The notes under the pieces: model-generated | Told to the model about the DNA's origin: nothing | Databases searched by the model: none | The model's input: the letters and a program-made list of their open reading frames with translations, nothing else | Shown here: piece after piece, positions 938 to 28,229 of the stretch | Layout of the letters: every line of letters begins with the position of its first letter | How positions within the stretch are numbered: the stretch's first letter is position 1 | Position numbers and translations under genes: made by a program | Source: Oligoflexales bacterium | GTDB lineage: Bacteria; Bdellovibrionota_B; Oligoflexia; Oligoflexales; Bog-1112 | Assembly (NCBI GenBank): GCA_045106415.1 | Contig: JBGCEP010000070.1 | Span: forward strand, 1-50,519 | Direction of reading: 5' to 3' | Length of the DNA: 50,519 nucleotides

Positions 938-3319
938 ATGTATATGGTTTATTATTCAAGAATTATTATTATATTCACAGCATGCATTGCTACATTTGGA
1001 ATAGGGTCGAACATAAAGCTTCTTCCTCATCAGAAAAAAGTTCTCAATCACCTTCATACAAACACAAATCAACACGGCCTTATTCTTTATCACGCTCTAG
1101 GTGCAGGCAAAACCATTACTTCTTTAGAGTACGCAAAAGAACAACACTTAAGCACAATTGTTCTAGCGCCAGAAGTCCTCAAAGCACATTGGTTAAAAGA
1201 AATAGAGAAAGTTGGTATTCCATCAAAAAAAATTATGATTTTAAGCTACAACACCTCCGAGGGTCTTGAAAAATTAAAAAACACTAACTTATCAAAATCA
1301 TTATTAATTGTAGACGAGGTGCAAAAGTTTATAGAGCAAGTACGACACTCTACAGATAAATGCTCTCTTAACTTATACTGGGACCTTTTAAAATCACGAA
1401 AGATTCTACTCTTAACCGGAACCCCTATATTCAATGACGCAACTGATATTGCATATATTGGAAATCTCGCTTTTGGCGAGGAAAAATTCCCTTTTCACCC
1501 AGATGAATTTAAAAATAAATACATGAGCATCGATACCACGACCTCTCTTTTCCGTGGGTACCTCACAGAAAGCAAACTCATGAGCACCGCCTTGCCTCTT
1601 TACGCAAGTTTTATTGGAGCTTCTTTAATCGCCGTAAGCGGTACATTTTGGGCACTACCTGTTATGTCAATGGTGGGATCTTCAGCATTAAATTTTATTA
1701 ATGAACAAAACCCAGTTAATCATGTCAGTTTCCGGAAGTTTGATGCTGCTGAATTTTCAGAGTTCAGTAACCGCTATATTTCCTATTACAAAAAGACTCC
1801 GAAAGACTCTAGCGATTACCCTTCGACCTCGGTTCACCCAATGAAAGTTTCTTATACAAACTCTCAAGTTAGCTTTTTTATGGATTTTTTAGACGGTGTC
1901 CTTACAAAAGAAAATCTAAACTTACTGCTCAAAGACTACCCAAACACCTACTCTCCAGCTATGCTACACATCAATAGCTCAAAGATTCAACAAGATCTAC
2001 TTGCTCAACCTGGCGCCGGACGTGAAATAGGAAACCTCAGTTTAAGAGGGACTCAAAAATTAGAGGAACCAATTAAATTTTTAAAAATCAAAGACCTTAT
2101 TCATGAAAACCCAGGTAAAACTGTTATTTATTCATCGTATTATCACAATGGCATTTTAAAATTCGCAGACTTTCTGAAAAAAAACAACATCAACTATGAA
2201 ATATTAGAAGCAAAATCCAGCACTCAAGACGTCCGAACAACCCTTGACCACTTTAATTCAGGAAAAAATAAAGTTTTATTACTTCACCCAGAAATTACAG
2301 AAGGTGTTTCTCTTATCGGAGTTGAACAGCTTCATATTTTAGAACCCGTGAAGAATGCAGCTCTCGAGAAACAAATTATAGGAAGAAGTGCCCGCTACCA
2401 ATCCCACAAACACCTCCCAAAACACCGTCAAACAGTCGACATATTCTTATGGGAGTCAACTGTAGAATACTCGCACTTAGGGTTGCCAACTGAAGCTGGG
2501 TTAGTACGTAGAGATCATTGGAGAAAGAGACACAGAGAAATCAACCCAAATCTATGGACAAACGGGATTACTCAACTAGATTCACAATACTTTAAAAAAG
2601 ACCAAACACCAGATCAACGTACAAACATAGATAAAAACTTTATTGTTGCAGATATGAATAGTTTTCAAAATATATGTGAAGGTCACTCACTCGAAAATTA
2701 TAGTAATAATAAAGTGTCACAATACAACCTTGCAACTCAACTCCATTCTCCTTTTGCATCACCATTGTTGTATCTCAATTATACAAACTACCAATCTCAT
2801 CATCTTAAAACTTTTCAAAAAGGGACAAAAATTGGAGAAATAACTAATAAAAAATCGGCTAGTTTTGATATTGAAATCCCTCACACCAATGAGATGAATA
2901 TTGGCTTTGGTCTTCGTCACACTACAGGCTTATTACAACCTAAAATATTAACAATATCCAACATTCCTTATTCCATACTTGAAATGGACCTAGCCCTTTT
3001 AAGTCGCATACACTACGAACATGATCGCTTACCTGAGGTTTCCTTTTACTGGAAAAATGAAATCGATTTATCTGTTTCTTTTATGCAACTTACAAATGGT
3101 CTAGGAATAGGGTTGCGTCAGTCTCTAGGAGCTCAAATGTTTATTTCAAAACACATAGGAATCAATATTGAATGTGGTCTTGAAGGAAAAGCTATCAAAG
3201 ATACAATGACTTCACATCATGACAACAATGAAATGTTTGAGTCACAAGAAATCCAACACTCTGTGAGCCACCTCAACCATCCTTTTGTAAACATTGGAGT
3301 CTTTTCGACATATTTCTGA
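938..3319 (+). CDS. SF2 (SNF2/poxvirus D6-D11-like) helicase with N-terminal signal-like peptide and C-terminal beta-barrel-like domain
   Basis: Q motif LLPHQ; motif I GLILYHALGAGKT; motif II IVDEVQ; motif III LLLTGTP; motif V ITEGVSL; motif VI QIIGRSARYQSH. AAAGGA RBS. C-terminus FVNIGVFSTYF. Confidence 0.85.
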   Translation: MYMVYYSRIIIIFTACIATFGIGSNIKLLPHQKKVLNHLHTNTNQHGLILYHALGAGKTITSLEYAKEQHLSTIVLAPEVLKAHWLKEIEKVGIPSKKIMILSYNTSEGLEKLKNTNLSKSLLIVDEVQKFIEQVRHSTDKCSLNLYWDLLKSRKILLLTGTPIFNDATDIAYIGNLAFGEEKFPFHPDEFKNKYMSIDTTTSLFRGYLTESKLMSTALPLYASFIGASLIAVSGTFWALPVMSMVGSSALNFINEQNPVNHVSFRKFDAAEFSEFSNRYISYYKKTPKDSSDYPSTSVHPMKVSYTNSQVSFFMDFLDGVLTKENLNLLLKDYPNTYSPAMLHINSSKIQQDLLAQPGAGREIGNLSLRGTQKLEEPIKFLKIKDLIHENPGKTVIYSSYYHNGILKFADFLKKNNINYEILEAKSSTQDVRTTLDHFNSGKNKVLLLHPEITEGVSLIGVEQLHILEPVKNAALEKQIIGRSARYQSHKHLPKHRQTVDIFLWESTVEYSHLGLPTEAGLVRRDHWRKRHREINPNLWTNGITQLDSQYFKKDQTPDQRTNIDKNFIVADMNSFQNICEGHSLENYSNNKVSQYNLATQLHSPFASPLLYLNYTNYQSHHLKTFQKGTKIGEITNKKSASFDIEIPHTNEMNIGFGLRHTTGLLQPKILTISNIPYSILEMDLALLSRIHYEHDRLPEVSFYWKNEIDLSVSFMQLTNGLGIGLRQSLGAQMFISKHIGINIECGLEGKAIKDTMTSHHDNNEMFESQEIQHSVSHLNHPFVNIGVFSTYF

Positions 3320-3383
3320 AAAACAAGGCTACTACCTCATACCTAGATAGAGGTACAGTCCACATCACTAGCTAGCCCTCACC

Positions 3384-5171
3384 TCAAAGACGCCTGATGC
3401 TATAAACAGGCCCTGATATATTTGAAGATGCGCCATTATCTTCTCTATGTTGGCTATGCTCTAATTGAAAATGAAATAACGGCAGATTTTCACCGACTGA
3501 GTAATGGTCAAGCTTAGGGTCGAAGCCCAGCATGTAGCCAAAGAAATCACACCCAATACCATATAAATAGTCAACTTTTGTTGGATCTGTTGAATTTTTA
3601 CGAATCAAGTCAAAAACCCCAGGTTTTTGTGCGGTGACTTTTGTTTTCATCTTCGAACAATCTCTATTTTGACTGTTCGTATAAAGATCATGAAAAACAT
3701 CTCCCCAATTATTTGAAATCACAGTAAAATCACGATCATCATCAGGCATGCTACTAATAACTATTGGGGATCCATTTTGATCTGTCAGAATTGTTGTCCA
3801 AAAAGACACTGGAGTACCATCACACGCTTCTGTCTGACTAATCCCGTCGCAACCATAAGTCACCATTTCATAACCATATGCACGCCCGGGTTTCCCAGCA
3901 AATACATAAACAGATTGCTCGAAAATCGTTGTGAAAAAATGAGGACGAAGTGTTGGGAAACTAGGATTAGCGCCCTCATATGAAGTATTCGTAGAGATCT
4001 GATCTCCTTGATTATAAAAGCGAAGCATTCGATTTAAATCAAGAACCATCGAAAGATCCACCGAACTTCCCTCTGCAATCTCAAAATTGGCTGGCAACTT
4101 AAATGTTAAAGAAAACTGTTTCTCAGCATAATCTAAGGGCATGTAGCCTCTATTTTTATACTCAGAATCATTCCCTTTCACAAAACTTCTCTCTAGAGAC
4201 ACCTTCATAAGTTGAGGTTCTTGATTTTCAAAGTCAGTACCCGTAACAGTTCCTTCGTCATATAACGATTTTCCAGAACGTGTACAATATTTGTGGAGTC
4301 CAGGGTGAGCAGAATCAGCACTGAAATCTGCGCTTAAACAACCTTTCATAAGGGATGAGTGCTTAAATGTAACAATGAGACTATTGTACACACCTGGTTT
4401 TACAGAAAACTTAGCCCCTGCATCACCTTCTTCTGTTTCTGATGCTTTTGCAATTAATTCTGATAAATCGACATGACCAGACTTTACTATGATCGAAACA
4501 CCATCTTCATCATCAAACACCACAGGTGTAGGAATATTTGTATTCGCTAAATCTGAAAAAACATAATCAGATTTTAAAGTTGCCTCATCAAACGTTAAAA
4601 GGTCAAAATCACTCTCTTTCACACCTGCAGACATCAATGCAGAAATAAGCTCTTCTTGTCCACTATACACATGGCCAACAACATTTGCTCTTAACTGTTC
4701 AATAACAGAATCAGATAATCCATCCGCACTCCATAACTCCAAGTGCTCCGCCTTAATAGAAAGATCTCCAGAAAAACCCCCTTCCGCGTTATTACCACTA
4801 TTAGCAAACTCTATCTTATAGATTGTGATGTGCATTTCATCTGGTGGACCCGATGTAATTTGATTTGGCTTATCAGCAGGTAAAGCAGTTGCTAATGCAA
4901 AAGAATCATCATAGAACCTCTCTGATAAAAGCTCTGTGCTAATTGCCAAACTTCCCGATGAAGTACTAGTAAAAGAAGAAGACGTTTTCTCTACAGCAAC
5001 AGCATCAACAGAATTTAATGCTTTAATATCAAGATTTACATACGACGCATTCAAAGACAGTGTTTCTGAAGATACAACTTGAGATCCATCAGTAGAACTA
5101 TCACTGTTATTTTGTTCATCACATGCTGACAATATCATAAAAAAAATTATACAATAAGAAAAATTTCGCAC
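3384..5171 (-). CDS. Hypothetical lipoprotein
   Basis: 595-aa ORF, GTG start after AGGAG, lipobox ILSAC, Ser/Thr-rich linker. No recognised catalytic motif. Confidence 0.75.
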   Translation of the reverse strand: MRNFSYCIIFFMILSACDEQNNSDSSTDGSQVVSSETLSLNASYVNLDIKALNSVDAVAVEKTSSSFTSTSSGSLAISTELLSERFYDDSFALATALPADKPNQITSGPPDEMHITIYKIEFANSGNNAEGGFSGDLSIKAEHLELWSADGLSDSVIEQLRANVVGHVYSGQEELISALMSAGVKESDFDLLTFDEATLKSDYVFSDLANTNIPTPVVFDDEDGVSIIVKSGHVDLSELIAKASETEEGDAGAKFSVKPGVYNSLIVTFKHSSLMKGCLSADFSADSAHPGLHKYCTRSGKSLYDEGTVTGTDFENQEPQLMKVSLERSFVKGNDSEYKNRGYMPLDYAEKQFSLTFKLPANFEIAEGSSVDLSMVLDLNRMLRFYNQGDQISTNTSYEGANPSFPTLRPHFFTTIFEQSVYVFAGKPGRAYGYEMVTYGCDGISQTEACDGTPVSFWTTILTDQNGSPIVISSMPDDDRDFTVISNNWGDVFHDLYTNSQNRDCSKMKTKVTAQKPGVFDLIRKNSTDPTKVDYLYGIGCDFFGYMLGFDPKLDHYSVGENLPLFHFQLEHSQHREDNGASSNISGPVYSIRRL

Positions 5172-5204
5172 AATACTCCTCTATCTTACAGTAACCTTTC
5201 TGAT

Positions 5205-5231
5205 CTATCGGGATTTATCCAATAATTTTTA
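5205..5231 (-). promoter_or_regulatory. Putative sigma28 (FliA)-type promoter
   Basis: TAAAAATT-N11-CCCGATAG versus consensus TAAAGTTT-N11-GCCGATAA, about 34 nt upstream of the 5171 start. Confidence 0.55.
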
Positions 5232-5779
5232 ATTTTTTAACTCAAGACTATAAATAATGTGAATTTAAACACCTATTTTATTTGATATTTTAACTACTTA
5301 AGTTTTCAAAAACGCTTCAGTTATACTAATGCAGATAAACAACCATACCCAACGGTGATTGCACATTTTAAGCAGATGAGAGAATTATTTTACATACATA
5401 CCTGAAATTGATCAGTCCATGATGTTTTTGTAATTTGCATTTTATTTTAACAACCCCAGATTTGATACCTTGACTACGCTGCAAGATATGAGACTCGTTA
5501 AACCTAGTTCAAGCCCATTATTCAAGCTATTTGAGGATATCTGACAAAATCATAAGATATCGTTTTGGTCTGATCAGAGGCAGATATATTCCGTGTTTTT
5601 TGGAACTAAGTCAAAAATATTTTAGATAAACAAAATTGGTTTCAAGGAAAATTTTTTTGAATTTTACATATATCACCAAAGATCTCAATAAGTTCACTAT
5701 AAATAGTTTAAAATACAAAACCTTGACAAGGATTATTTTCTTCTCTACTTTCCACCTGATTATTCTTTCTGGAGTTATT

Positions 5780-6682
5780 ATGTTTCTCAGAACACTTTGT
5801 CCCGCTCTCGCTCTTACCTTACAGTCCTTTCAACCAACTTTGTGTGCTCCTGGTGAAGAATTTTTTGATTTTTATATAAAAGAAACAACACCCTTGCACA
5901 CGACTAAAAATAGCTCTGTCTTTCTTTGTACACATAAAAAAACTGGTCACCAAAAAATTCTAAAAGAGTTCTTTCTCAAGTCTTACGACAAAAATCCTGA
6001 CCATGAATTACAAATGATGCATCTTTTACAACAAAAACCGCATCCACATCTTATTCATTTAGAAGATGAATTTATTACTAATTCTCTGCGACGTTTTATA
6101 TTTAAGCGATATACACGGGATCTTTTCGACCAGATTTTTTCATCCCCTCTAACTTCATCTCAACAAAAAAATATTTTTTTCAATATTGCTTCAGCCGTTG
6201 CTCATCTGCACAGAAATGAAGTTGCTCACCGTGATATCTCTTTAGAAAACATCCTTATCAATCGTGACTTAGAAGGGTGCCTATGTGATTTAGGAGCAGC
6301 ATCCTACAAAGAAGATATGACTTCTACATTTTGTGGTAAAAGAAATTATGCTGCCCCTGAAGTTTTCCACTCTCTGAAATACAGAACCCCATATGACCCT
6401 TATAGCGCAGACATTTGGTCTTTGGGTATTACTTTTTATGTTGCAGCATTTCAGAATTTTCTATTTGATGAAGCAAATAATCAATCGCTAGATTTTAAAA
6501 TATTTAAAGAGGCACTTTATCCAGAAAAATTTATAAAAGAAAAAGAGTCTGAAAATATTGACCCGTTATTTCTTGATCTTCTTGTGAAAATGCTGAGAAT
6601 TAATCCAGAGGAAAGAATAGATATTGAAGGCGTTCTCATACATAAATGGTTTTCTCATGAAGAGGGATCTTTAAAACTTTAA
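5780..6682 (+). CDS. Eukaryote-like Ser/Thr protein kinase (CAMK-like) with predicted signal peptide
   Basis: ATG 5780 follows GGAG (preferred over 5636). Motifs: ILK Lys, HRDISLEN, DLG, CGKRNYAAPE, DIWSLG, PEERI. N-terminus MFLRTLCPALALTLQSFQPTLCA. Confidence 0.9.
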   Translation: MFLRTLCPALALTLQSFQPTLCAPGEEFFDFYIKETTPLHTTKNSSVFLCTHKKTGHQKILKEFFLKSYDKNPDHELQMMHLLQQKPHPHLIHLEDEFITNSLRRFIFKRYTRDLFDQIFSSPLTSSQQKNIFFNIASAVAHLHRNEVAHRDISLENILINRDLEGCLCDLGAASYKEDMTSTFCGKRNYAAPEVFHSLKYRTPYDPYSADIWSLGITFYVAAFQNFLFDEANNQSLDFKIFKEALYPEKFIKEKESENIDPLFLDLLVKMLRINPEERIDIEGVLIHKWFSHEEGSLKL

Positions 6683-6803
6683 TACAATCACCATATTTAT
6701 TTCATATAACACCCGATCAGCTCTTTTGAACAAAAAAACTTGATTTAAAATTGCCTTTTACTTATAAGATGAATAACTACGCATTTGTAAACGCTTACTC
6801 TAT

Positions 6804-8420
6804 ATGCCCAGAAAAATGACTGTCGAGAACAAAAAAAATAAAAAAATCAGAAAAATTACAGCCATCTGCATCTCTTTGATTTTTCTAAACCCTACAGTGA
6901 AGGGGCAACCTTCTTCTAAAAACTTAGCTATCACCAGCAGTGCTTTATGTCTTGGCGCTTTAATAATGCACAGCTTTCTAAAAAAAGCAGAAGACAGCAC
7001 TTCAACAGAGGACATTCTCCTCCCTCCAACAAAAAATAAAATACCAATAAAAAAAGATTATTATGAAGAAATAAATATTGAGAATTCAAATTTTTGTTCC
7101 CAAGAAATCAGAGAAGAAGGTCTAAAACCTTTAAATGCAATTTTAAAGTCACACATAATTTCATCAAAAAGCTCACAAGCATTGAAAAGCCTCATTAAGT
7201 CCCTGCAGAGCACTTTGAATGTACTTAGGATCCAACAGATTGAAAGTCAAAACTCTGGAATATATGACTGGCACTCTCAAATTAGACACGCAAGAACAGA
7301 ATACTTTAGCCATCTTCCATATAAGCTGACACAGATTGAGGATCAAGATTGGGAACTTATCCCAGGGCTGCCTTTTTTAACACAACACGGTACTATTGAA
7401 CTTGCTTCTGTCACTCCGTTAAAAGCGACCCACCCAGGAATCGCTGGTTTTATTGTCATACCACAGAAGTTTACAAGTGATAATGAAATTATTGTTTCAT
7501 TTACAGGAACACAGAGTCGCGCGAGTCAATGGCGAGACACTGAGGGCTTTACTAACTTTTCAACAAACCCAGGGTACAAGAGTATTCTTGGTTCCCAGGA
7601 TCTCATACTCCATCAGGTTTGGGAAAAAATAAGTCTCTATACCAAATCACCTTATACACTTATATTTGCAGGACACAGCTTAGGTGGTGCAGACGCACAA
7701 CACATAGCTGAAGCCTTTACACGCAGCTTATTAATAAAATCACAAGAAAACTCAGACCTTTTTCTTATATTTCAAAGAATATGGGTCTGCATGAGCAATT
7801 CAGCAGGTATTCCTCTTCATTTATCTACTCAGAGTTTAGAAACATTAAAAAAAATTCAGATATTTAGCAATAAAGCCAGTCATGTCATTAACTTAAGAAT
7901 TTCCGCGGTTCTCATTGATGGTGACGGTGTTCAACTCACAGGTGAAGGAACTTTATGGCAATCTTTAAAAACAAAAAATGTCGACATCGAAGTTTTTAAA
8001 ATTCGCTATTTTTCCGAACAAAATTCACCCCGATGGATTCATAGAATATTAAAACCTGCTATCATAACTAGTGGAATCATCATGTTTCCATTTACGACAG
8101 TATTTACTCATATTGGCTCAACAACGATAGAAATGTTAAGAACAACAATAACAAGTCACCGTCTTAAATATTATGCACACTCTTCTGCTCTGCAAATTTC
8201 TAGCTTTGCTGAAATTGAACTTATCCAAGGTCAAGATGCTATCAAACTTTTAAGTAACAAAATATGTACATATCATTGGTTTGAATTTTTACTTCCAAAC
8301 ATACCCCTTGCTCAAAACCTTTCTTTATCTCAAACATCTAAAAAAGGCGAATTTCAAAAAATGAACTCTCATGATTGGGAAATATTACACGACCCTTGGG
8401 AAAATCAAAAATATGAATAA
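6804..8420 (+). CDS. Lipase class 3 family protein
   Basis: IIVSFTGT lid motif and FAGHSLGG nucleophile elbow. Basic then hydrophobic N-terminus, plus a second hydrophobic segment near the C-terminus. Confidence 0.8.
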   Translation: MPRKMTVENKKNKKIRKITAICISLIFLNPTVKGQPSSKNLAITSSALCLGALIMHSFLKKAEDSTSTEDILLPPTKNKIPIKKDYYEEINIENSNFCSQEIREEGLKPLNAILKSHIISSKSSQALKSLIKSLQSTLNVLRIQQIESQNSGIYDWHSQIRHARTEYFSHLPYKLTQIEDQDWELIPGLPFLTQHGTIELASVTPLKATHPGIAGFIVIPQKFTSDNEIIVSFTGTQSRASQWRDTEGFTNFSTNPGYKSILGSQDLILHQVWEKISLYTKSPYTLIFAGHSLGGADAQHIAEAFTRSLLIKSQENSDLFLIFQRIWVCMSNSAGIPLHLSTQSLETLKKIQIFSNKASHVINLRISAVLIDGDGVQLTGEGTLWQSLKTKNVDIEVFKIRYFSEQNSPRWIHRILKPAIITSGIIMFPFTTVFTHIGSTTIEMLRTTITSHRLKYYAHSSALQISSFAEIELIQGQDAIKLLSNKICTYHWFEFLLPNIPLAQNLSLSQTSKKGEFQKMNSHDWEILHDPWENQKYE

Positions 8421-8567
8421 AAACGTGCAAATCAAATAAAACTAAAGTGAAAAGTCTCATTACACATGACCCATTCTATCTGAAAAAGAAAGTAAGTATC
8501 TGAATATTTTATGGAAAAAATTTAATCCACACTAAGACATCAACATTTAAGATAAAAAAGTCGATCC

Positions 8568-8594
8568 CTCTTTTATAACTTATTTATAAAAGAG
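8568..8594. promoter_or_regulatory. 11-bp perfect inverted repeat upstream of the 4-gene operon (possible operator)
   Basis: CTCTTTTATAA-cttat-TTATAAAAGAG, ending 46 nt before ATG 8641. Confidence 0.35.
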
Positions 8595-8640
8595 ATTTCG
8601 TATTAAAAAAGTAAACGAACAACTTTATCTTATTGAGGAT

Positions 8641-9669
8641 ATGGATGAGTGCGACTTATCAAATGCTCAATATGACCCACACCTTTCCCAGGCTAACTAT
8701 GAAAACGATACTCAACTTTTCTGGGCAAGCCTCGACTACATTCAAAATCAAAGTTTAATCGATATTATAGAAAAAATCCTCACAGCTCACGGGTTTGAAA
8801 TTAATATAGAAAACTGTCTATCATGCTTAGATAGTTTTCAAATAAGCCTTCTGATTAAAATGAAATCTACTTTACTCTCAGAACCAAAAGCTCAAAAATT
8901 CATACCATGCATAAGCTTTAACCTTCCTTCCAAACAAAGAAAAGGTGGTTTTTTAAATCTTTTCTACAAAGAAATTGAAGGTTTTGAAAAAAAAGAAGAG
9001 AAATCTGAAAAATCAAAAACCACTAGTGAAGATAAAGATAAAATTATTTCAGAACAAAAAAAAGAAATTAAAATTCTCGAAGAAAAAAATCGTTATTTAG
9101 AAAATATTTTAAAAAAACAAACTCCTAATATTCATGTCATTACAGAAAACACAGGTCTCCAAGATCTTGAAGTAAGAGAAGGATTTGTTTACAAAATTAA
9201 TTACATGCAAAGACACCTTACCCTGAAATCAGGAAGGCAACATTTTAAAATTTCTTTTTCTAATTTACCAAGCCTTCCTCTTGAAAAAGAGATTTGTTTG
9301 ATAAAAACAAATCATAAAAAAACACAAATAGATTTAATCCCTTTGGAAAGTACTCCACATCATTTTGATTATGTCATAGGAATAGTTGTATCAAAAAAGA
9401 ACAATACTATAAAAATAAAAATACCTGAAAGAGGTTATTGGCAAATCAAAGCTATTCACCAAAAAGAAAAAGATGAAATAAACAGAGTACATAGAAACCA
9501 AAACATCTTAGTGGTTATGGTTGCAGATAAGATTATACGGATACATCATATAAAAAAATCACATCATAGTATCGATGAAATAAAAGAAGAGATAATTATG
9601 CATGATATCCATACCACCCAAGAGACTTTAAATATTGAGGATAATGACATTGAATATGCAAGAGTTTAA
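8641..9669 (+). CDS. Hypothetical protein (coiled coil followed by beta-rich, possibly OB-like repeats); first gene of the MotAB-helicase operon
   Basis: 342-aa ORF with GAGGA RBS and a central E/K-rich heptad region. The stop overlaps the start region of the MotA-like gene. Confidence 0.8.
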   Translation: MDECDLSNAQYDPHLSQANYENDTQLFWASLDYIQNQSLIDIIEKILTAHGFEINIENCLSCLDSFQISLLIKMKSTLLSEPKAQKFIPCISFNLPSKQRKGGFLNLFYKEIEGFEKKEEKSEKSKTTSEDKDKIISEQKKEIKILEEKNRYLENILKKQTPNIHVITENTGLQDLEVREGFVYKINYMQRHLTLKSGRQHFKISFSNLPSLPLEKEICLIKTNHKKTQIDLIPLESTPHHFDYVIGIVVSKKNNTIKIKIPERGYWQIKAIHQKEKDEINRVHRNQNILVVMVADKIIRIHHIKKSHHSIDEIKEEIIMHDIHTTQETLNIEDNDIEYARV

Positions 9670-10435
9670 ACAACAAAGCTATATTCAGACTTCTGTGAAA
9701 AAGTCTGACCCATTTTCTTTCTTTCTAGGTACAGGACTTATTTTCTATCTGATTTATTCCATAGTAGGTTCTGTCAGCTTAGATTTTTTTTGGGATCTTA
9801 AAAGTTTTGTCATCGTTTTTGGTGGTACTCTTGGTAGCTTAATTATGCAATATGATTTTTCTTCTTTCTGGCAAGTCTTCGTCGATATTAAAAATTCTTT
9901 TTATAATAAAACAGAACAATCTATGAAAAATTCTTTACAAGATCTTGATAAAGCAATTTTAGAAGGTTTGGATATTTTTGAATTAAGAGAAGGAAATGAA
10001 ATAAATGGAGATCTTTTAAATGATTCTATTTATATGATTAAGCAAAACCTAAATTACGAGGAGATCACAGAATTTATATCTGTTAAAATTGAAAATATTT
10101 ATTCAAAAAGAAACCATAGCGTTATCGTTTTGCAAAGAGCAAGTATTCTCGCACCTTCTTTAGGTCTTTTTGGTACAGTGATTGGCCTAGTTTCTCTTTT
10201 AAAATCCTTAAGTGATCCTAGCCTCATTGGTCCTGCAATGTCACTTGCTCTTTTAACAACTGCTTATGGTTCTGGTCTGTCTTCACTCATTATAAGCCCT
10301 CTTGCAGGTCGAGTTGAGCATAGTAATCGTAAATTTTTAGATCTTCACCACCAATTCATGAGTAAGATATCAATCCTTATCAAAAGGTATGAAAAATTAA
10401 TGAATGAAGATCAACAAGGAAAGCTTTCGTTATGA
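9644..10435 (+). CDS. MotA/PomA-like (MotA/TolQ/ExbB) ion-channel stator subunit
   Basis: FVIVFGGTLG; APSLGLFGTVIGLV...LSDPSLIGPAMSLALLTTAYG; four hydrophobic segments. Start could be 9644 or 9656. Confidence 0.9.
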   Translation: MTLNMQEFKQQSYIQTSVKKSDPFSFFLGTGLIFYLIYSIVGSVSLDFFWDLKSFVIVFGGTLGSLIMQYDFSSFWQVFVDIKNSFYNKTEQSMKNSLQDLDKAILEGLDIFELREGNEINGDLLNDSIYMIKQNLNYEEITEFISVKIENIYSKRNHSVIVLQRASILAPSLGLFGTVIGLVSLLKSLSDPSLIGPAMSLALLTTAYGSGLSSLIISPLAGRVEHSNRKFLDLHHQFMSKISILIKRYEKLMNEDQQGKLSL

Positions 10436-11076
10436 AAGAACACCATAAGCCACAAGATCAATATGCTATGAATAATACCACAGCATTTTATATGAGTTTT
10501 GGTGATCTGATGGTCATTCTTTGTTGTTTTTTTGTTCTCATCCACAGTGTTAGTAAAGTTGAAATAGGCTCTTTTGAGAGAATACGGACTCAATTCACAG
10601 GAACCTCTAAAGGAAGCCTTGTTGAACTTTCAGAGGATTTGCAAAAAATAATCAAATTAAGCAAGATGGAAGACATTCAAGTCAGTTACGACTCCGATGG
10701 AGTGCGACTTAATATGGAAACAACTTCTTTATTTGAAGTAAGCTCTGCCATTGTAAAAAAAGAAGCACTTCAACCTTTGGAAAAAATCCTGCTCAAAGTT
10801 AGAGAAACTCCCTATACACTTGATATTGAAGGTCACACTGATGACCAAGGACTCTATAGAGTAAGAGACGATCTCCTTGAAACAAATTGGTCATTAAGTG
10901 GCTTAAGAGCAAGTTCTGTCTTACATCACCTTATCGCCCTTGGTTTTAAAGAAACAAGAATGCGAATAGTTGGGTATGCTTCCAATAGACCTAAAATTGG
11001 AATATCAGGGAAACAAGGATTAGAGCTCTCACAAGCACGGGCTGCAAACCGCAGAGTTTCAATTTTGATCCATTAA
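10432..11076 (+). CDS. MotB-like protein with OmpA peptidoglycan-binding domain
   Basis: TM helix FYMSFGDLMVILCCFFVLI with the conserved ion-binding Asp; IEGHTD, NWSLSGLRA, NRRVSI. ATGA overlap with the motA-like stop. Confidence 0.9.
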   Translation: MKEHHKPQDQYAMNNTTAFYMSFGDLMVILCCFFVLIHSVSKVEIGSFERIRTQFTGTSKGSLVELSEDLQKIIKLSKMEDIQVSYDSDGVRLNMETTSLFEVSSAIVKKEALQPLEKILLKVRETPYTLDIEGHTDDQGLYRVRDDLLETNWSLSGLRASSVLHHLIALGFKETRMRIVGYASNRPKIGISGKQGLELSQARAANRRVSILIH

Positions 11077-11090
11077 AATTGCGAGGAAAT

Positions 11091-14000
11091 ATGTCCATCT
11101 GGAACAAAAAAAATAAAGCATCAATAAAAATTAATAAAGATTTCCACCTTCAATTATCTAAAAACCATCATGACTCGGGTTTTTCGCTACTCTCTATTGA
11201 AAACATTTCAAAAAAAGAAAAAATATATATAGAAGAAGATATTATTCAAAAATTAGAAAATTTCTTAGATAGATCAAAAGATATTATTACAAATGGAAAG
11301 ATTTTTCACAATGGAAAAATATATTTATCGTGTTCGCAAGATAATGATGACAGTAATTTTTTTATTTTAAAAAATGAATACCACTCTAAATATGGATTTA
11401 TCAGTCTTCAACAGCAGATGATACCAGGTTTTATATCAGTGTTAAATGACCACCGCCTTAAAACCCATCACGACACACTTACAAAAATCATCAATTACCA
11501 TCGTCTTTTTCAATTTACTTTTGAAGATCAACAAGAAAGTATGAATAGCGACTTATCTATGAGAAGGAACATATTAAGTCATCTAACACAATATACACCA
11601 CGTATAAAACAACAAACTGGTAAAGAATTACTACAGAAATCGGTAGCACACATTCAAGATTATAAAAACACTTCAGAATTAAAGAACAATCAAACTCATA
11701 ATAAATTTCAGTCAAAACTTGGGGTGAGATCAGCAAATAGCCCATACGAGATCGACTACAATCATTTATTACAATCATCTTCTCATCCAGGTAAAAACCC
11801 TTTAAAAAAAGAAGAACATTTTGACCCTGAATCTTCTATTTCTTATTATCCCATACAATTAACTTCATCTACTATAAAACAATATCAACACAAACCTTAT
11901 GAGTGTGATATTTCTTCTGAAGAAATGAAAAACATCAAAAATCACTTTATTTCTCATAATAAATTTGATTTTTTTCTTGGTTTTGAAATGATGCAAGCAA
12001 TTTTCAAAAAAGACAAAAAACAAAAAAGCTTTGTTTTTCCATTGTATTATATGAAAGTTGAAATTAATCACATCGACAACACACTTCAAATAAAGCCCAT
12101 TGAGAACGGGCGTTATTATCTTAACTACATCGCAATCATTAATCTCATTGAGACTTTCAGTAGAAATCAAAGCAAAGATGATTTTGAATCTTTTTTCAAC
12201 GGTTTATTGCAACATCGATTTGAAGTTGATCAAAAAGAAAATCGTCTTAATCTTTCTCGCACATTACCTGTAAAAGAAGAGTTTTTTAAGAAATATCGTG
12301 ATTATCTTCTTGGTGACATCGAAAAAGATGATCAAAAAGGAATTTTTTCAGATTTAAAAATTGCTGGTGTCGAGTGTGATGTTGAAGATGTTTATTTATA
12401 CCGAACTCAAAATCACCTTAGTATTGCATCTCAATGCTTGAATTTAGATCTTGGTTTTATTGAAGAATTATCTGAAAAACAAAAAAACAAATTCAATTCT
12501 TCATTACTAGGAAAATTTTTAGATAAAAAATTAGCAAAGATAGAAAAAAATCAGGAAAAAAACTCTATAGCTTGGATGCCAGGAGCTCTTCCTCAGAGCA
12601 TGAAGAATTTAAATAAAAAAATAAAAGAACATGATCTTCTTGTTCTACAAGGTCCGCCTGGGACAGGGAAGACTCATACAATAAGAAATATTCTGATTGA
12701 TGCTCTTTGTCATGATAAAAAAATCATGATCGTGAGCGATCGAGGTTCGGCCATTGAGGCAGTTATGGACAAAATGGAATCTTACTTCTTACAGCATACT
12801 AACGATGAGTTTAATAAAAAAATTATACAGAATTTTTGGAGAAGATGTATCCCATGTATTCCAGAGTTATCTCAAGATCCATCACAACTTCGAACGTTTA
12901 TAAAAACTATTGTTGATCAACTTTTTTTAAAAAACTCTGATACTTACGACCACATTGATTCGGACATTAAAAATCTTGACAAAGAATTCGAACAATTAGA
13001 ATTAAAACGGAAAAAGATGCGTGATGAACTTGATTTTATTCTCAAAAATCAAATAACTTCATCTCCTCATGATTTTATTGGAAGCGCAAATCGCAAAGGG
13101 CAACCAACCAATAAAGAAGATATCGATCAAATAATGATATTTAAAATATTCTTGGATAAAAAAATTAAAGATAAAGAAGAGGGATCGCAAGAATATCTAA
13201 AAGGGCAGGAAGTTCTTTCTAGTTTTATTCAGCGTCTTTGTGAAATCCAAAAAGGAATATTCCATGAATTTTATATCTTTTTCCATATTAATAAAGAAAA
13301 AGATCTTTTTTTATTAGAAAAATTTTGCGATACAATAGAACAAATAAAACCAGAAACATGTGATGATCTTATTGAATGCCTTGAAGACCTTGATAATACA
13401 TTTCTTACAAAATTATTTTCAAAAAAATTCAATCAAAAACAACCTCCTGACGCTGGGGTTTTTCAAACTATACCTTTAAAAATAAGGAGAAAGTTTAAAT
13501 ATCCTTTGTATGACTTCATTACTAAACTCCAACTTTACATTAAAGAACATAAACTCTTCCTAGATATTATTAGAAATGAAGATTCTTCAATATGGAATGA
13601 ATCTTTGAAAATTTATGATTTTTTTCACAAATCATCGAAAAGAGAATTGTTTCCGTTTTCTTTGGAGTTAATTTTTTATAAATCTGCTTTAAAAGAAAAA
13701 TTAAAATATAAAGAGCACAAATCCTACCAAAAAACTCCACACTATATTTTAAATGAATTAAAAATTTTACAAGATCGTAAAGATTCAATTATTCTAGAAA
13801 AATCAATACTTAAACTTCAACACATAGCAGATAAATTAGATCACACTTCAGAAAAAGATTCTCAACCCTTGAAATCAAAAATTCTCTATCTTTGTGATCA
13901 AATTTCTGAGAAAGAAAACCTATCTTTATGTATCCCTCTCTTACAAGACTTACAAAAACATCTCATACAAAGTTTTCCAGTATGGGTATGCCGCAAACAA

Positions 14001-15323
14001 GCTATTCCTTTTCTTATCCCATGCCAAAGTCAAGTTGTTGATCTTATTATCATAGATGAAGCTACTCAATGCAGAGTCGACGACAGCCTCCCTTTATTGA
14101 TGAGAGCTAAAAAAATTATGGTTGTCGGTGATGATAAACAGACCGTTCTCAATAAAAATTCGATAATCGATGATTATTTATTTAATGAACTTAATTTAAA
14201 AGAACACCTTGCTTCAACACAGTCAGCAAACCTAAAAGGTGGTGGTTCCCATATTTTTGGGCTTTTAAAAGATATTCAACAAGCAGAAATTTTACTAGAT
14301 GAACACTATCGATGTCCTCCTGATATTATTTCATACTCAAATGAATACGTGTATCACAATCAACTGAAAATTATGCAATGGGAAAAAGAAAGTCAACACG
14401 AGTCTGTTCATATTGATTACAGTGAAAAAGATTTCCCTCTAGGAAAAAGACAAGTCGCCGGTCCTTATAAGGGTTTAGACACGGGAATGATCGACCGATT
14501 TCTAGATTATGTGTGCAATGAAATTGAAAAAATAGAAAAACAAAAAGGTATAAAAGTCAACGTCGAAACCGATGTTGCACTTTGTTATTTTCTTCTTAAA
14601 AACAACTCTTATTTTGATGATATAAAATCAAAATTTTTAACTCGTCTAAATCGAGGTCACTCCATTCTTAGTGGTGCTGGCGCTGCACTCCAAGGAAAAG
14701 AACGAGATTATATCTTTTATTTTTGGGATTGTTATCGTGGAAATTTTGCTTCATTTAAACAAGGTGATGATGAAAACAAAAGAAAAGGTGAACTTAACGT
14801 TCTCATGAGCCGCCCCAAAAAAAAAGCTTATCACTTCTTACACCATAGCTTTCAAGATTTAGCACATAGTAAATCATCTATTACAGATTATCTATGGAGC
14901 CGATATCAAAAAAAATTTGATATCTCGGAGAAAAAAACATACCAGGTGCGCCAGCAACATCCTGGGGAATCTTATCCTCAGAATAGGGGAAGTGGACAAC
15001 TTATGCTCTCACTAATTCAACCGGCTTATAGTCAGCTCATAGCCCAAACATCATGCCAGTTCAGTAAACATGTTGGAAATCCAAGATACCAAGTTGACTT
15101 AATTTTAGAAAACAAAGACCCTCATAAAAAATCTTTATGTTTTAAAGACTTAAGCCAATTTTTATATCATGACACATCTGTTGATGAGGTTATAGATTAC
15201 TTTTTTCAGCTACAACGAGCACAGCCATCACTAAATCCCGTCTTTTGTTTTCTGCACCATTTTCTAGACACAGATGGCGACGTCGTTGCAGAAATCAAAG
15301 AATTTCTGAATGATTCACTATAA
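11091..15323 (+). CDS. Large SF1 (DNA2/NAM7/Upf1-like, AAA_11/AAA_12) helicase with possible degenerate C-terminal restriction-endonuclease-like domain
   Basis: ATG 11091 after GAGGA. Motifs QGPPGTGKT, IIDEATQ, VVGDDKQ, LDEHYRC, LQGKERD, LNVLMSRPK. Tail VGNPRYQVDLIL resembles Vsr/MTES-type YRIDL domains. Confidence 0.9.
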   Translation: MSIWNKKNKASIKINKDFHLQLSKNHHDSGFSLLSIENISKKEKIYIEEDIIQKLENFLDRSKDIITNGKIFHNGKIYLSCSQDNDDSNFFILKNEYHSKYGFISLQQQMIPGFISVLNDHRLKTHHDTLTKIINYHRLFQFTFEDQQESMNSDLSMRRNILSHLTQYTPRIKQQTGKELLQKSVAHIQDYKNTSELKNNQTHNKFQSKLGVRSANSPYEIDYNHLLQSSSHPGKNPLKKEEHFDPESSISYYPIQLTSSTIKQYQHKPYECDISSEEMKNIKNHFISHNKFDFFLGFEMMQAIFKKDKKQKSFVFPLYYMKVEINHIDNTLQIKPIENGRYYLNYIAIINLIETFSRNQSKDDFESFFNGLLQHRFEVDQKENRLNLSRTLPVKEEFFKKYRDYLLGDIEKDDQKGIFSDLKIAGVECDVEDVYLYRTQNHLSIASQCLNLDLGFIEELSEKQKNKFNSSLLGKFLDKKLAKIEKNQEKNSIAWMPGALPQSMKNLNKKIKEHDLLVLQGPPGTGKTHTIRNILIDALCHDKKIMIVSDRGSAIEAVMDKMESYFLQHTNDEFNKKIIQNFWRRCIPCIPELSQDPSQLRTFIKTIVDQLFLKNSDTYDHIDSDIKNLDKEFEQLELKRKKMRDELDFILKNQITSSPHDFIGSANRKGQPTNKEDIDQIMIFKIFLDKKIKDKEEGSQEYLKGQEVLSSFIQRLCEIQKGIFHEFYIFFHINKEKDLFLLEKFCDTIEQIKPETCDDLIECLEDLDNTFLTKLFSKKFNQKQPPDAGVFQTIPLKIRRKFKYPLYDFITKLQLYIKEHKLFLDIIRNEDSSIWNESLKIYDFFHKSSKRELFPFSLELIFYKSALKEKLKYKEHKSYQKTPHYILNELKILQDRKDSIILEKSILKLQHIADKLDHTSEKDSQPLKSKILYLCDQISEKENLSLCIPLLQDLQKHLIQSFPVWVCRKQAIPFLIPCQSQVVDLIIIDEATQCRVDDSLPLLMRAKKIMVVGDDKQTVLNKNSIIDDYLFNELNLKEHLASTQSANLKGGGSHIFGLLKDIQQAEILLDEHYRCPPDIISYSNEYVYHNQLKIMQWEKESQHESVHIDYSEKDFPLGKRQVAGPYKGLDTGMIDRFLDYVCNEIEKIEKQKGIKVNVETDVALCYFLLKNNSYFDDIKSKFLTRLNRGHSILSGAGAALQGKERDYIFYFWDCYRGNFASFKQGDDENKRKGELNVLMSRPKKKAYHFLHHSFQDLAHSKSSITDYLWSRYQKKFDISEKKTYQVRQQHPGESYPQNRGSGQLMLSLIQPAYSQLIAQTSCQFSKHVGNPRYQVDLILENKDPHKKSLCFKDLSQFLYHDTSVDEVIDYFFQLQRAQPSLNPVFCFLHHFLDTDGDVVAEIKEFLNDSL

Positions 15324-23550: not shown

Positions 23551-25191
23551 CTATATTTTTTCTACTCGGACTTGATCGATTTTGACTGACCAAGCACCTT
23601 CTTCAACAGGTTCAATGACTATGGGATTCACGACATAGCTTGGATTTAATTTCGACCCTGGTTCAACACTATTGTCGTTATCAAAAAGATCTTGAATAGG
23701 TATACGAAGAGTTTTCCACACACCTGATGAGATATTATCAACTATAAGATCACTGGTTTGAGGCCATCCACTATCTATTTTTATTCGTACACTAGGATTC
23801 ACAGAGTTCACCTGGAGATCCATGACAAGTTGTCCTTCGCTCCATGTAGAAAAATCAGCAAAAAAACCATCAACAAAATGTGCATAAACATTCGCAATTC
23901 CACGGCCTCCTTTTTTAACCTCGATGACTTCTCCTCGTTCTGTGTCTTGAACTTCTTGTGCGATAATGTTTATACCTTCGCTACCATAAGTTAAAATCTC
24001 AAAATCATCATCAACACCATCATCACCGTATACAATGAGTTCCTCAACATCTTGAAGAGGATATAGTAGTGGCACATCAGGTACAGAAGCCCCTTCTAAA
24101 GGTTCTATATTTGTTGGTTTTTTACATCCTTTACCTGTTTGGGAGTCTTTTAAACATTCATAAACACGAACCCAGTCGATCGACATAGTCTGTGGAAAAG
24201 AGCTCTGAGCATCCGGAGGGCCTGGCCAAGCACCACCAACCGCTACATTCAAAAGGATATGAAACTCTTTATCAAAAGGTTTTGGGAATTCATGTAGAGT
24301 GATTTGGCCATTACTCTGTGTTTTTGAATACCATTTATTCTGGGTAGCATAATGTTCATCATCGATAAACCACCGGATTTCTCCCTCTTCCCACTCGACA
24401 CAGTACTCATGAAATGTAAACCCTGGGTGAAACTTCTCAAAAACATACTCTTGGCCTGAGTGAACATTGTCTGGCCAAGAACCCCCATAGTGTAAGGTGC
24501 CATGCACAGATGCGTTTTGAGCAGAATCCGCAGAAAGATTGACTGCTTCCATAATATCAATTTCACCACTTGCAGCCCATACCCCTTGTACCGGATCTGT
24601 AGGAAGCATCCATATTGCTGGCCATAACCCTTGACCATATGGAAGCTTTGCTCGAGCACAAATTTTTCCATATAAAAAATCTGCCTGGCCTTTTGTACGA
24701 ATTCGGCCTGAGGTATACTCCATTGTTTTAGGCCCGCCATCACCATTTGCTCCATCTGAACCCGTAAAACTTTCTTTTATAGCGGTAATATTTAAAAAGC
24801 CATTTTTGACATAAACATTATCTTTTTTATCTGTATAACATTGAAGTTCACCGTTACCACCACCCCAACAATTTTGCTCATAGCTCCACTTTTGAAGATC
24901 AAGATCACCTTCTTCAAACTCATCACTCCAAACCAAGTTCCAATCAGAGTTATTCTCATGGTTTCCGTCTATAGTATTCTGAGCGCTTATCACCTGAGAG
25001 ATTTCTGGTTCATCTAATTTTTTTTTCTGCAAATCATCAGATCTTTCTTCAGCAGCTTGATTTCTATATATTGTCGTATAATTTCCATTTTGGGAGGCAG
25101 AGGGTGATCTTTGCTCTCGTTTGCAAGAGAGTGAAAAAAAAACAAATAAAAGATATAAAAAAAAGGTCTTAGGAAAAAAAGCGAACATCAT
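23551..25191 (-). CDS. GH16 beta-1,3-glucanase (laminarinase-like) lipoprotein with C-terminal putative carbohydrate-binding domain
   Basis: WNLVWSDEF, WGGGNGELQCY, WPAIWMLP, catalytic GEIDIME. Lipobox SLSC. Confidence 0.92.
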   Translation of the reverse strand: MMFAFFPKTFFLYLLFVFFSLSCKREQRSPSASQNGNYTTIYRNQAAEERSDDLQKKKLDEPEISQVISAQNTIDGNHENNSDWNLVWSDEFEEGDLDLQKWSYEQNCWGGGNGELQCYTDKKDNVYVKNGFLNITAIKESFTGSDGANGDGGPKTMEYTSGRIRTKGQADFLYGKICARAKLPYGQGLWPAIWMLPTDPVQGVWAASGEIDIMEAVNLSADSAQNASVHGTLHYGGSWPDNVHSGQEYVFEKFHPGFTFHEYCVEWEEGEIRWFIDDEHYATQNKWYSKTQSNGQITLHEFPKPFDKEFHILLNVAVGGAWPGPPDAQSSFPQTMSIDWVRVYECLKDSQTGKGCKKPTNIEPLEGASVPDVPLLYPLQDVEELIVYGDDGVDDDFEILTYGSEGINIIAQEVQDTERGEVIEVKKGGRGIANVYAHFVDGFFADFSTWSEGQLVMDLQVNSVNPSVRIKIDSGWPQTSDLIVDNISSGVWKTLRIPIQDLFDNDNSVEPGSKLNPSYVVNPIVIEPVEEGAWSVKIDQVRVEKI

Positions 25192-25305: not shown

Positions 25306-25864
25306 GAAGCTGTCTGACCTTTTTTGAAGACCTTTTATGACAATTGAGATGTTTTTTTCATGGCAATCCTGAGGCTTCCAATGAAATTCATAGATTCTTG
25401 ATGGTCAGAGTTTTTTTCATAGTTCCTGACAAGTCTTCTTTGACGATTCAGCCATGCAAATGATCTCTCTACAACCCAACGGAAAGACTGTGGAACAAAG
25501 CCTTTTTCTCCCTCTTTTCTACAGTCCGCTTCGATAGAAGCAGGAACTCTGCATGATATCCCAACATCTCTATAAGCCTTATCCCCAAGGATTTTCTCAA
25601 GTCTGGGAAAATTTTCATCGTCATTGAGCTGTGCAGTGATAACTTCTCCTGCATGTCGATCATGTTGGTTAGCTGACGTCACAACGCATGACAAAAGCAT
25701 CCCCATGACATCTGTGCCGTTTACGACCTTTAACCTTTTTATTGCAATCCAAACCTCGACCCCAAACACCAGGCTCTGCCGTATAGAGATTGAGAGTCAA
25801 CAGACACGAGTGATAATGATCGCTCCCTTCCGACTTTTTCTCTCGCTATTTCCACTAAATGAGG
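25306..25864 (-). mobile_element. IS5-family transposase remnant (3' half, frameshifted) with right end
   Basis: Minus-strand frames give REKVGRERSLSLVSVDSQS / GLDCNKKVKGRKRH / DVMGMLL...GDKAY...RWVVERSFAWLNRQRRLVRNYE, with two frame breaks. Probable terminus GAAGCTGTCTGA after TTA at about 25306. Confidence 0.85.
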
Positions 25865-26159
25865 TTTTCAATGCGTATCTTGAGAAGATTTTAAGCCCAC
25901 ATTTGGATGGAAATACAGTTATTGTGCTTGATAATGCTTCATTTCATAAGTCTTCAAATATAGTTCAAATAGCTCAAGAGTATGGGGCAGAAGTTCTATA
26001 TCTTCCCCCATATAGTCCAGATCTCAATCCTATCGAACACAAGTGGCATCAAGTTAAAACAAAAATACGAAAAATTCTCAGAGATGGATGTGACTCTATT
26101 TATGATGCTGTTTGTGCGGCTATGAAGATGTTGAGCAAGTAAATGTAGCCAATGCTATA
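25861..26159 (+). mobile_element. IS630-family transposase remnant (3' part) with right end
   Basis: VIVLDNASFHK and YLPPYSPDLNPIEHKW (DDE_3). Ends ...CCAATGCTATA at a TA. Confidence 0.9.
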
Positions 26160-27836: not shown

Positions 27837-28229
27837 ATGCAACACGAGATATCAACACAAAGCCTCTACGTCACTACAACTTCGAATAAAGGACGAGGTG
27901 TCTACACAAGAGAAAAAATATCGAAAGATACTATTATTGAAATTTCTCCCATTATGATTCTCTCGAAACAAGACACCATTAAAATCCAAGACACCAATCT
28001 ATCCAACTATATTTATGAGTATCATGAACAGCAAGACGCATTGTCTCTTGGTTATGGTTCTCTTTATAACCATTCTTATACACCAAATGCTTATTATCAA
28101 TTTGACATCGATCACCAGATTCTTGAGTTTATTGCACTTTCAGATATTTTAAAAGACGAAGAAATCACCATTAACTATAACGGTGATCCTCAAGACAAAA
28201 CTGAATTATGGTTTTCTGTTAAGGCTTGA
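27837..28229 (+). CDS. SET domain protein
   Basis: KGRGVY, YNHSYTPNA, EEITINY. Confidence 0.9.
   Translation: MQHEISTQSLYVTTTSNKGRGVYTREKISKDTIIEISPIMILSKQDTIKIQDTNLSNYIYEYHEQQDALSLGYGSLYNHSYTPNAYYQFDIDHQILEFIALSDILKDEEITINYNGDPQDKTELWFSVKA

Follow-up and report, generated by a model that had tools for sequence, protein, structure and literature searches.

The window analysed here, a stretch of 50,519 nucleotides (contig JBGCEP010000070.1) from an Oligoflexales bacterium whose genome comprises 89 contigs and 2.95 Mb, carries at 8641-15323 a cassette of four genes that is a fixed, self-contained module. It encodes a protein of a new family (orf1), the A and B subunits of a MotA/MotB-like ion motor, and a giant helicase, and while rare, it is complete at every testable genome locus. 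Ion-driven 5:2 motors are known to be used for flagella, for Ton/Tol transport, for gliding and, in Zorya systems, for immunity; there, a MotA/MotB-like motor, ZorAB, is combined with a cytoplasmic effector. The cassette appears to represent a second case of this kind, in which a motor of the flagellar branch was recruited, independently of ZorAB, to a giant helicase. By analogy, it may serve, as Zorya does, to watch for phage or foreign DNA that enters the cell, a reading to which we assign a probability of roughly 0.4.

Four genes in a fixed order

A helicase profile, scanned against one genome per prokaryote species, yielded 392 confirmed relatives, of which the best 80 were kept. Among these best 80, 67 loci hold full-length-type orthologues with 28-52% identity, and the remainder match the helicase core alone. 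The order orf1-A-B-helicase is present in all 51 orthologous genome loci that have at least 2750 nucleotides (nt) upstream of the helicase, as the sequence-only reading had proposed to check; the remaining 16 of the 67 are truncated by contig ends, and the genes that fit are present. The linkage also holds in the reverse direction. When metagenome contigs are searched with the A subunit and matches of 37% identity or more are counted, 41 of 41 loci that extend 1500 nt or more downstream have the helicase there, the B gene is found in 56 of 56, and orf1 is detected by tblastn in 53 of 57. Of the four misses of orf1, three have less than 800 nt upstream, and the fourth (L212; such labels are our own handles for loci, genomes and families) holds an unrecognised open reading frame (ORF) of 358 amino acids (aa) in that place. 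Weaker A-subunit matches in the metagenomes (28-35% identity) are accompanied by neither helicase nor orf1. The four-gene arrangement is thus far beyond chance. These counts also bear on a first rival explanation, by which the A and B genes would be an extra flagellar stator pair whose operon happens to include an unrelated helicase and a gene of unknown function: in none of the 51 genome and 41 metagenome loci are the genes apart, which argues against it.

At the level of the junctions, direct reading of the sequence bears out the earlier description of four tightly coupled genes on one strand. The stop codon of orf1 (TAA, 9667-9669) falls within the A-gene ORF, which opens at a TTG and offers two in-frame ATG codons; the A and B genes have an ATGA at 10432-10435 in common; and the stop of the B gene at 11076 is followed by the longest helicase ORF. 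The helicase most likely starts at the ATG at 11091, with GAGGAA ahead of it at 11083-11088, which leaves a gap of 14 nt after the B gene. That the DNA is AT-rich was likewise correct, the guanine-plus-cytosine (GC) content being 31.2% in the cassette and 38.5% in the remaining window, and so was the lack of flagellar, Tol and Ton genes in the window, none being found by Pfam among 42 of the 44 ORFs of at least 120 aa; the two that the scan omitted (24249-24755 and 46198-46734) both overlap longer ORFs. A scan of the window for consensus promoters and terminators gave no excess over shuffled sequence (for promoters, 27 sites with 32.2 expected), and since consensus sites do not rise above the shuffle level, we name no promoter upstream of orf1. 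The coordinates of all features are collected in Table 1.

Table 1. Features of the cassette in the window. Helicase residues are counted from the TTG at 11079 (1414 aa).
Feature	Position	Strand	Description
Leader	8421..8640	+	AT-rich, intergenic; presumed operon promoter region; GAGGA at 8634-8638 precedes the orf1 ATG
orf1	8641..9669	+	342 aa, soluble, new family; N-domain, long helix, two tandem OB folds
A subunit	9635..10435	+	MotA/PomA/MotP-like; 266 aa from TTG 9635; likely start ATG 9644 or 9656
B subunit	10432..11076	+	MotB-like, 214 aa; transmembrane segment with Asp D25, followed by a plug, a very short linker and a peptidoglycan-binding domain of the OmpA type
Helicase	11091..15323	+	1410 aa; AAA_11; longest ORF 11079-15323
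Walker A	12651..12674	+	GPPGTGKT, residues 525-532; invariant in 10 orthologues
Motif II	14055..14072	+	DEATQC, residues 993-998; invariant in 10 orthologues
C-terminal domain	14985..15320	+	REase-like (Vsr/DUF559-like); invariant D1340, D1357, Q1377 and R1380

A motor pair resembling flagellar stators

By Pfam, the A subunit belongs to the MotA_ExbB family (PF01618, 63.6 bits), and the B subunit exceeds the cut-offs for both the MotB plug (MotB_plug, 30.8 bits, cut-off 24) and the OmpA domain (41.6 bits). The ion path is kept throughout. The ion-binding aspartate D25 of the B subunit (motif FGDL, nt 10504-10506), which corresponds to Escherichia coli MotB D32, and the equivalents of the prolines P173 and P222 of MotA (E. 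coli K-12 numbering) are invariant in 43 cassette sequences, as they are in all 11 rows of a smaller alignment made for each subunit (for the A subunit, eight of the rows are cassette proteins). Also strongly conserved in the 43 sequences are the torque face of the A subunit, in its cytoplasmic loop, and the peptidoglycan-binding residues of the B subunit. At the position of E. coli MotA A180, in the third transmembrane segment (TM3), the A subunit has a threonine in all 43 sequences. According to a figure legend of the Zorya paper, a threonine in TM3 is required for sodium binding by PomA (PMC11946911); because this residue is invariant in the cassette A subunits, the motor may be of the sodium type. 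The linker of the B subunit is gapped over about 30-40 columns relative to E. coli MotB and to the flagellar MotB proteins of the same genome. For ZorB, the Zorya paper argues that the lack of a linker keeps the protein out of reach of the wall as long as the envelope is undisturbed (PMC11946911); the short linker of the cassette protein would parallel that argument, a parallel and not a proof.

The best family matches of the pair are MotP, PomA and MotD, which would suit an extra stator. For the A subunit, the NCBIfam scores are 109.5 bits for MotP (cut-off 394) and 102.9 bits for PomA (cut-off 341), with TolQ next at 28 bits; measured against the equivalog cut-offs, the scores amount to no more than a third; the B subunit, with MotD among the best matches of the pair, scores 106.2 bits against a cut-off of 283. 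Paralogues in the same genome attain 244 bits (over the cut-off of 237) and 217 bits. A tree of 80 A-type proteins, comprising 43 from cassettes, seven paralogues of this genome and 30 proteins from five carrier genomes, unites the cassette proteins in a single clade (Shimodaira-Hasegawa-like approximate likelihood ratio test, SH-aLRT, support 89) beside flagellar-type MotA/PomA paralogues, and sets both groups apart from all ExbB/TolQ types by a branch of length 3.16 with support 100; it is a quick search with few references and includes no ZorA. Placement within the flagellar-type superclade is what an extra stator pair would predict; a clade of the cassette's own and the low equivalog scores are not. 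Taken together, the residues and the tree assign the A/B pair to flagellar-stator descent, with the ion-path residues kept.

Against the PADLOC ZorA models, the A subunit has no match at E-values up to 0.01. The ZorB model finds the B subunit weakly and in a generic manner (best 4.4e-13), as OmpA-domain proteins in the flanks match it equally well or better. Across orthologous loci, the A subunits measure about 253-307 aa as longest ORFs and have no tail of the ZorA type. The sequence-only reading had described the A subunit as short, PomA-like and tail-less, and the coupling of motor and helicase as possibly an independent one; these results agree with both, the coupling being independent of ZorAB.

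The motor pair and the flagellum

The genome that contains the window encodes FliG and eight genes of the MotA/ExbB family. By NCBIfam, these comprise, in addition to the cassette, genes for TolQRA, pairs of the ExbBD-like type and two canonical pairs of flagellar stators. Other carriers lack parts of the flagellum: a cassette-bearing Microbulbifer genome (G041) has no match to FliG_C, and two cassette-bearing genomes that consist of a single contig (G019 and G034) have no match to flagellin and marginal matches alone to FliG_C (24.3 and 22.6 bits). In a further carrier (G018), the sole FliG_C match has 39 bits and lies within an open frame of 696 aa. The occurrence of the cassette in genomes without FliG or flagellin speaks against the extra stator, and the A/B pair, as judged from these gene inventories, works apart from the flagellum.

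A motif upstream of orf1 deserves mention in this context. TAAA-N13-17-CCGATA occurs in seven of 43 loci from about four lineages (L021, L022, L023, L032, L034, L068 and L075), about 20-80 nt upstream of the gene or, in L075, just inside the annotated start. Shuffles would yield about 0.2 such loci, and on the opposite strand there are none; in the window itself the motif is missing. It resembles the promoter consensus of sigma-28 (FliA), and would in this respect favour an extra stator pair. No tie to flagellar promoters emerged, as the motif occurs in none of the 16 flagellin loci checked in two genomes, and two of its carriers have no flagellin; we therefore assign it no sigma factor. Motifs for sigma-54 and for LexA, the latter in its gamma-type form, were not found upstream of orf1. 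Weighing all of this, we consider it highly improbable that the A and B genes are an additional flagellar stator pair.

As a separate observation, weak FliG_C-like stretches (39-48 bits) are present in long frames of 696-811 aa, e.g. at G000:C27:76250-76570 and similarly in G027, G029 and G018. The regular FliG, with about 340 aa, is a separate protein.

orf1, a new family with predicted OB folds

The first protein of the cassette matches nothing in Pfam, PADLOC or NCBIfam. Searched against 1.84 billion representatives, a profile built from 43 sequences retrieves only 145 clusters. The long matches mostly have lengths of 330-390 aa; a few fall in far larger proteins, where they are weak and confined to the helix region. 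The protein is predicted to consist of a conserved alpha/beta N-domain (residues about 1-95), a helix of 58 residues (103-160) that is read as a coiled coil, and two barrels (176-236 and 241-306). In the AlphaFold2 (AF2) model, with a mean predicted local distance difference test score (pLDDT) of 74.5, these parts appear as an alpha/beta N-domain, a helix and two small barrels. With VIA-align, the barrels superimpose on oligonucleotide/oligosaccharide-binding (OB) folds with Z-scores of 6.2-8.4, namely EF-P, SSB, PriB, cold-shock and PAN N-domains, and Foldseek returns weak matches to the coiled-coil and double-OB region of Mpa. The OB folds of the model suggest binding of single strands, and the likeness to Mpa may be taken as a hint at ring formation. 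Complex predictions of orf1 with the MotA-like subunit and with helicase residues 1-240 scored 0.01 against a mark of 0.32, which gives no verdict.

An Upf1-like helicase with a reduced nuclease motif

The helicase is composed of a cassette-specific N-terminal extension (residues about 1-230), a superfamily 1B (SF1B) core interrupted by an insert of some 400 aa, and a C-terminal domain that resembles restriction endonucleases (REase-like); residues of about 260-500 are possibly a DUF4011-like region. Pfam recognises AAA_11 with 34.5 bits (cut-off 27). The SF1B motifs GPPGTGKT, DEATQC, VVGDxKQT, LDEHYRCPP, QGKER and NVLMSRPK are invariant in 10 orthologues, and the closest solved chains by sequence are IGHMBP2, Sen1, Upf1/Nam7 and DNA2. 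By these motifs, the protein is classed as an Upf1-like SF1B helicase with an intact core, so that the effector belongs, as initially read, to SF1 and not to SF2, with all motifs of the Upf1/DNA2 type in place. A search with residues 1-500 finds 55 relatives, most of them with 1372-1496 aa and two shorter. Where public sources give these a name, they are called 'hypothetical', 'AAA domain-containing' or, once, 'DNA polymerase III delta prime subunit'. The N-terminal extension was not found in shorter proteins at E-values up to 0.001, with a sensitivity bounded by shared words.

The neighbours of the helicase in PADLOC and NCBIfam are defence helicases, namely PDC-S37 (6.7e-25), MkoA/MkoC, Hhe, ProA, PLuB and mad8. 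These matches lie mostly over the P-loop region and far under the family cut-offs; for NCBIfam Hhe_antiphage, the score is 56.5 bits with a cut-off of 2000. A relation to the helicases of DUF4011-SF1B-MTES_1575 build, to which Hhe belongs, was followed from several sides. None of 49 orthologues matches DUF4011 (PF13195) at E-values up to 1, nor do any of the 49 match the Pfam models MTES_1575/DUF559 in the tail, and a genome-wide search for the DUF4011 family finds other helicases and not the one in the cassette. Profile searches of the PDB with the helicase termini returned one row at chance level (E 0.19) and otherwise none. Language-model features place residues 1-500 near DUF4011 (0.89) and the tail near DUF559/MTES_1575 (0.93), values that serve as leads only. 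Profile-profile comparison by hhalign with four true DUF4011/MTES_1575 helicases gave E-values of 0.04 for the tail and 0.03 for the N-terminal part, at probabilities under 2%; at E 0.03-0.04, this is too weak for a claim of homology, and we do not make one.

For the last 177 residues of the helicase, AF2 gives a model whose pLDDT exceeds 90 over the tail domain, and VIA-align finds I-Bth0305I (Z 7.5, 92 residues aligned, root-mean-square deviation 3.3), NGO0050 (Z 7.0) and Vsr (Z 6.0), scores that are middling and consistent. The best Foldseek rows are all REase-like folds, weakly matched, with a best E-value of 7.6e-3. In the hhalign alignment of the tail, IDL pairs with VDL and ECDG with V-D, such that the glutamate and the histidine of the ECDG..H motif are gone and one aspartate is left. 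Because both residues are lost, nuclease activity of the tail is uncertain. The Vsr-like nuclease tail of the sequence-only reading is thus supported in part, at the level of an REase-type fold, with the catalytic motif reduced to a single aspartate.

The four true DUF4011-SF1B-MTES_1575 helicases, which stem from the same class, stand alone, with no motor genes, and measure 1355-1431 aa. They share with the cassette helicase the order of parts, a similar length, an AAA_11 domain split by a large insertion into the first RecA domain, and a C-terminal REase-like fold. The cassette helicase differs in being about 200 residues longer at the N-terminus, in its reduced catalytic motif, in never standing alone, and in the failure of either Pfam model to match its orthologues. 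A lone true DUF4011-SF1B-MTES_1575 helicase of 1378 aa is also found in a cassette-carrying genome (L150, G034:C1:1079000-1089000, at 2178-8797 on the minus strand), preceded on the same strand by an unknown 376-aa gene and an adenine methyltransferase of the D12 class. This locus is perhaps an Hhe-like system of its own that includes a methylase.

Relation to Zorya and to flagellar stators

How does the cassette compare with the established systems? With Zorya it has in common a MotAB-family motor of the inner membrane with a peptidoglycan-binding B subunit, which forms one operon with soluble proteins acting on nucleic acids, including a large helicase; in both, the ion-binding aspartate is conserved and the B anchor is close to the membrane. 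Zorya of types I-III consists of ZorAB plus ZorCD, ZorE or ZorFG, with a 70-nm coiled-coil tail of ZorA that is conserved in all types and essential (PMC11946911). The cassette departs from this plan in many respects: its A subunit has about 260 aa and no coiled-coil tail, its motor comes from the lineage of flagellar stators and not from ZorAB, its B subunit has a MotB plug whereas ZorB has none, and its helicase is of SF1B whereas ZorD is of SF2. There is no ZorC, ZorE, ZorF or ZorG, and none of the PADLOC models for Zor effectors matches orf1 or the helicase. Finally, the cassette has a single fixed set of effectors without subtypes, and it lacks a defence-island context. On these features, we do not count the cassette as a member of Zorya, in line with the earlier statement that it fits no described type. 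In full-text searches of the literature, we found neither a description of the cassette nor a 'type IV' or 'Zorya-like' system of such build; supplementary material to the papers on Zorya, PADLOC and MotAB evolution lay outside these searches and could list it.

MotAB, PomAB and MotPS are closer in descent. These stators, named the 'FIT' clade in an evolutionary study (PMC12505986), are the sister lineage in our tree and share the A subunit with four transmembrane segments and the prolines P173 and P222, the B subunit with its aspartate, plug and OmpA-like domain, and, in PomA-type units, the TM3 threonine. The cassette pair is unlike them in that it always shares an operon with orf1 and the helicase, in its scores far under the equivalog cut-offs, in the gaps in the B linker, and in its presence in genomes without FliG or flagellin, where the torque face has a partner other than FliG.

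Possible roles of the cassette

What might such a machine do? We propose that the four gene products would act as one self-contained machine. By analogy with the solved structures of MotAB, PomAB and ZorAB, the A and B subunits would form an ion-driven rotary motor of 5:2 stoichiometry. This motor would be plugged by default, and would turn on when a disturbance of the envelope lets the B anchor with its short linker reach the cell wall. Through its conserved cytoplasmic face, the A subunit would then engage orf1, with its coiled coil and two OB folds, and/or the N-terminal extension of the helicase, and this engagement would place or activate the helicase at the membrane, on nucleic acid that is entering or located there. 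The surveillance of foreign DNA that this scheme implies is favoured by the analogy to Zorya, by the Hhe-like helicase and by the sporadic transfer of the whole module: outside Oligoflexales the spread across phyla is sporadic, with the whole cassette present every time. A family of gammaproteobacteria around Microbulbifer is an example, with the cassette in five of 151 genomes.

Several observations weigh against a defence role. In 19 diverse loci, the 136 ORFs in the flanks are metabolic or housekeeping genes by Pfam, and the PADLOC matches among flanking genes are generic cross-hits to DbpA helicase, PolA, SufS/SufC and OmpA-domain proteins. In six genomes, flanks followed out to 6-18 kb contained just one AbiE pair and one HipA with an SNF2 gene, 8-12 kb off. 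No integrase or transposase adjoins the cassette, and searches of plasmids (72,556 records), phages (50,697 records) and IMG/VR turned up no orthologue. In one clade, comprising some 8-12 species, the cassette has the same genes next to it on both sides. The GC content of the cassette tracks that of the host from 31 to 64%, with a median difference of -0.75 points over 38 loci. In the metagenome loci, no alternative effector was seen beside the cassette motor, where the types of Zorya are modular. The reduced nuclease motif does not assure a DNA-cutting effector. Lastly, among genomes at least 85% complete, the cassette is present in 38 of 104 across the class, and in 14 of 16, 14 of 20, four of four, two of three and one of one genomes of five Oligoflexales families (f15, f13, f5, f4 and f3, respectively); such core-like presence in some families is unusual for a defence system. 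Enrichment in defence islands, which the sequence-only reading had suggested to look for, was not observed in these flanks, and the defence role that it had put forward gained no support from computation, given housekeeping flanks, a lack of mobile carriers and near-universal presence in several families.

The same observations suit a different explanation, in which the cassette is a lineage-core machine of Oligoflexales with a task other than defence. A stator of flagellar descent would here power or gate a complex of the helicase and the OB protein at the inner membrane; possible jobs include taking up or processing DNA of external or prey origin and a membrane-linked quality control of RNA or DNA, with occasional transfer to other phyla. 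The high frequency in five families, the chromosomal position kept in one clade, the housekeeping flanks, the host-adjusted GC content and the absence from plasmids and phages are all in its favour, as are the OB folds of orf1, which suggest single-strand binding, and the reduced nuclease motif, which fits a non-destructive role. It is at odds with the absence of the cassette from two families of the same class (0 of 27 genomes in f17 and 0 of 9 in f12) and from most of the window's own family (present in two of 12), because of which the cassette must be considered dispensable. The low frequency in gammaproteobacteria and the transfer of whole modules between phyla are typical of accessory modules that are self-sufficient, and known genes for uptake or competence were not seen in the flanks. 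Moreover, the GC content of the cassette lies 7 points under its surroundings here and 5-14 points under them in five other loci. In the tree of A subunits, the clade of the window adjoins a gammaproteobacterial clade (support 87); this position and the low GC content suggest that the present genome acquired the cassette by transfer. We rate a lineage-core task as somewhat less probable than the surveillance. The same weight falls to the broader notion that would go with it, namely that the stator lineage has a second, flagellum-independent branch that drives or gates an assembly of helicase and OB protein, as a standing machine of Oligoflexales and not an immune system.

A third alternative reverses the logic of the proposed surveillance and amounts to abortive infection: the helicase and orf1 would sense foreign nucleic acid in the cytoplasm and unplug the A/B channel, and the resulting ion leak would collapse the membrane potential and halt the infected cell. 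The plug retained in the B subunit is what a gated channel would require, and after partial loss of the catalytic motif the helicase is perhaps a sensor and not an effector. The strongly conserved peptidoglycan-binding residues of the B subunit and torque face of the A subunit, however, would be needless for a plain leak. The same model was at first proposed for Zorya and, as the Zorya paper reports, was rejected by experiment for type I (PMC11946911). For the cassette we judge it improbable.

Zorya-like surveillance remains the reading that we favour, and the cassette is of interest under either outcome. If it is a defence system, the coupling of an envelope motor to an effector acting on nucleic acids arose more than once, and the cassette offers a tail-less version in which to study the transfer of the signal from the motor. 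If it is not, it represents a new cellular use of the stator unit, which, should the lineage-core explanation be true, would be an ion-powered device for handling nucleic acids at the inner membrane. As carriers exist in culture (Microbulbifer rhizosphaerae, Pleionea sediminis and Exilibacterium tricleocarpae), the cassette is directly testable.

Neighbouring genes in the window

The immediate neighbours of the cassette in the window, a kinase, an orphan of 538 aa and an ATP-grasp gene, are found at no other cassette locus. The region upstream (938-8420) looks variable. It contains an SNF2-type helicase (938-3319), an unknown minus-strand gene of 595 aa, a Ser/Thr kinase (5636-6682) with a generic kinase match to PADLOC mad6 (3.8e-42), and the 538-aa orphan (6804-8420), which is in none of 15 other genomes of the family. 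In a second carrier (G017), too, an SNF2 helicase and HipA lie 8-12 kb from the cassette. About 10 kb downstream (25335-26142), partial matches to DDE transposases (DDE_Tnp_1 and DDE_3) are found in two short ORFs that overlap each other on opposite strands and are probably remnants of insertion sequences. Farther on, genes of a eukaryote-like or host-associated flavour are located at 27837-28229, 33166-35723, 40949-42199 and 31182-32047; they encode a SET-domain protein, two sodium symporters of the SNF family, a transporter with a weak match to TLC ATP/ADP transporters, and a MazG-like protein beside an EVE-domain gene.

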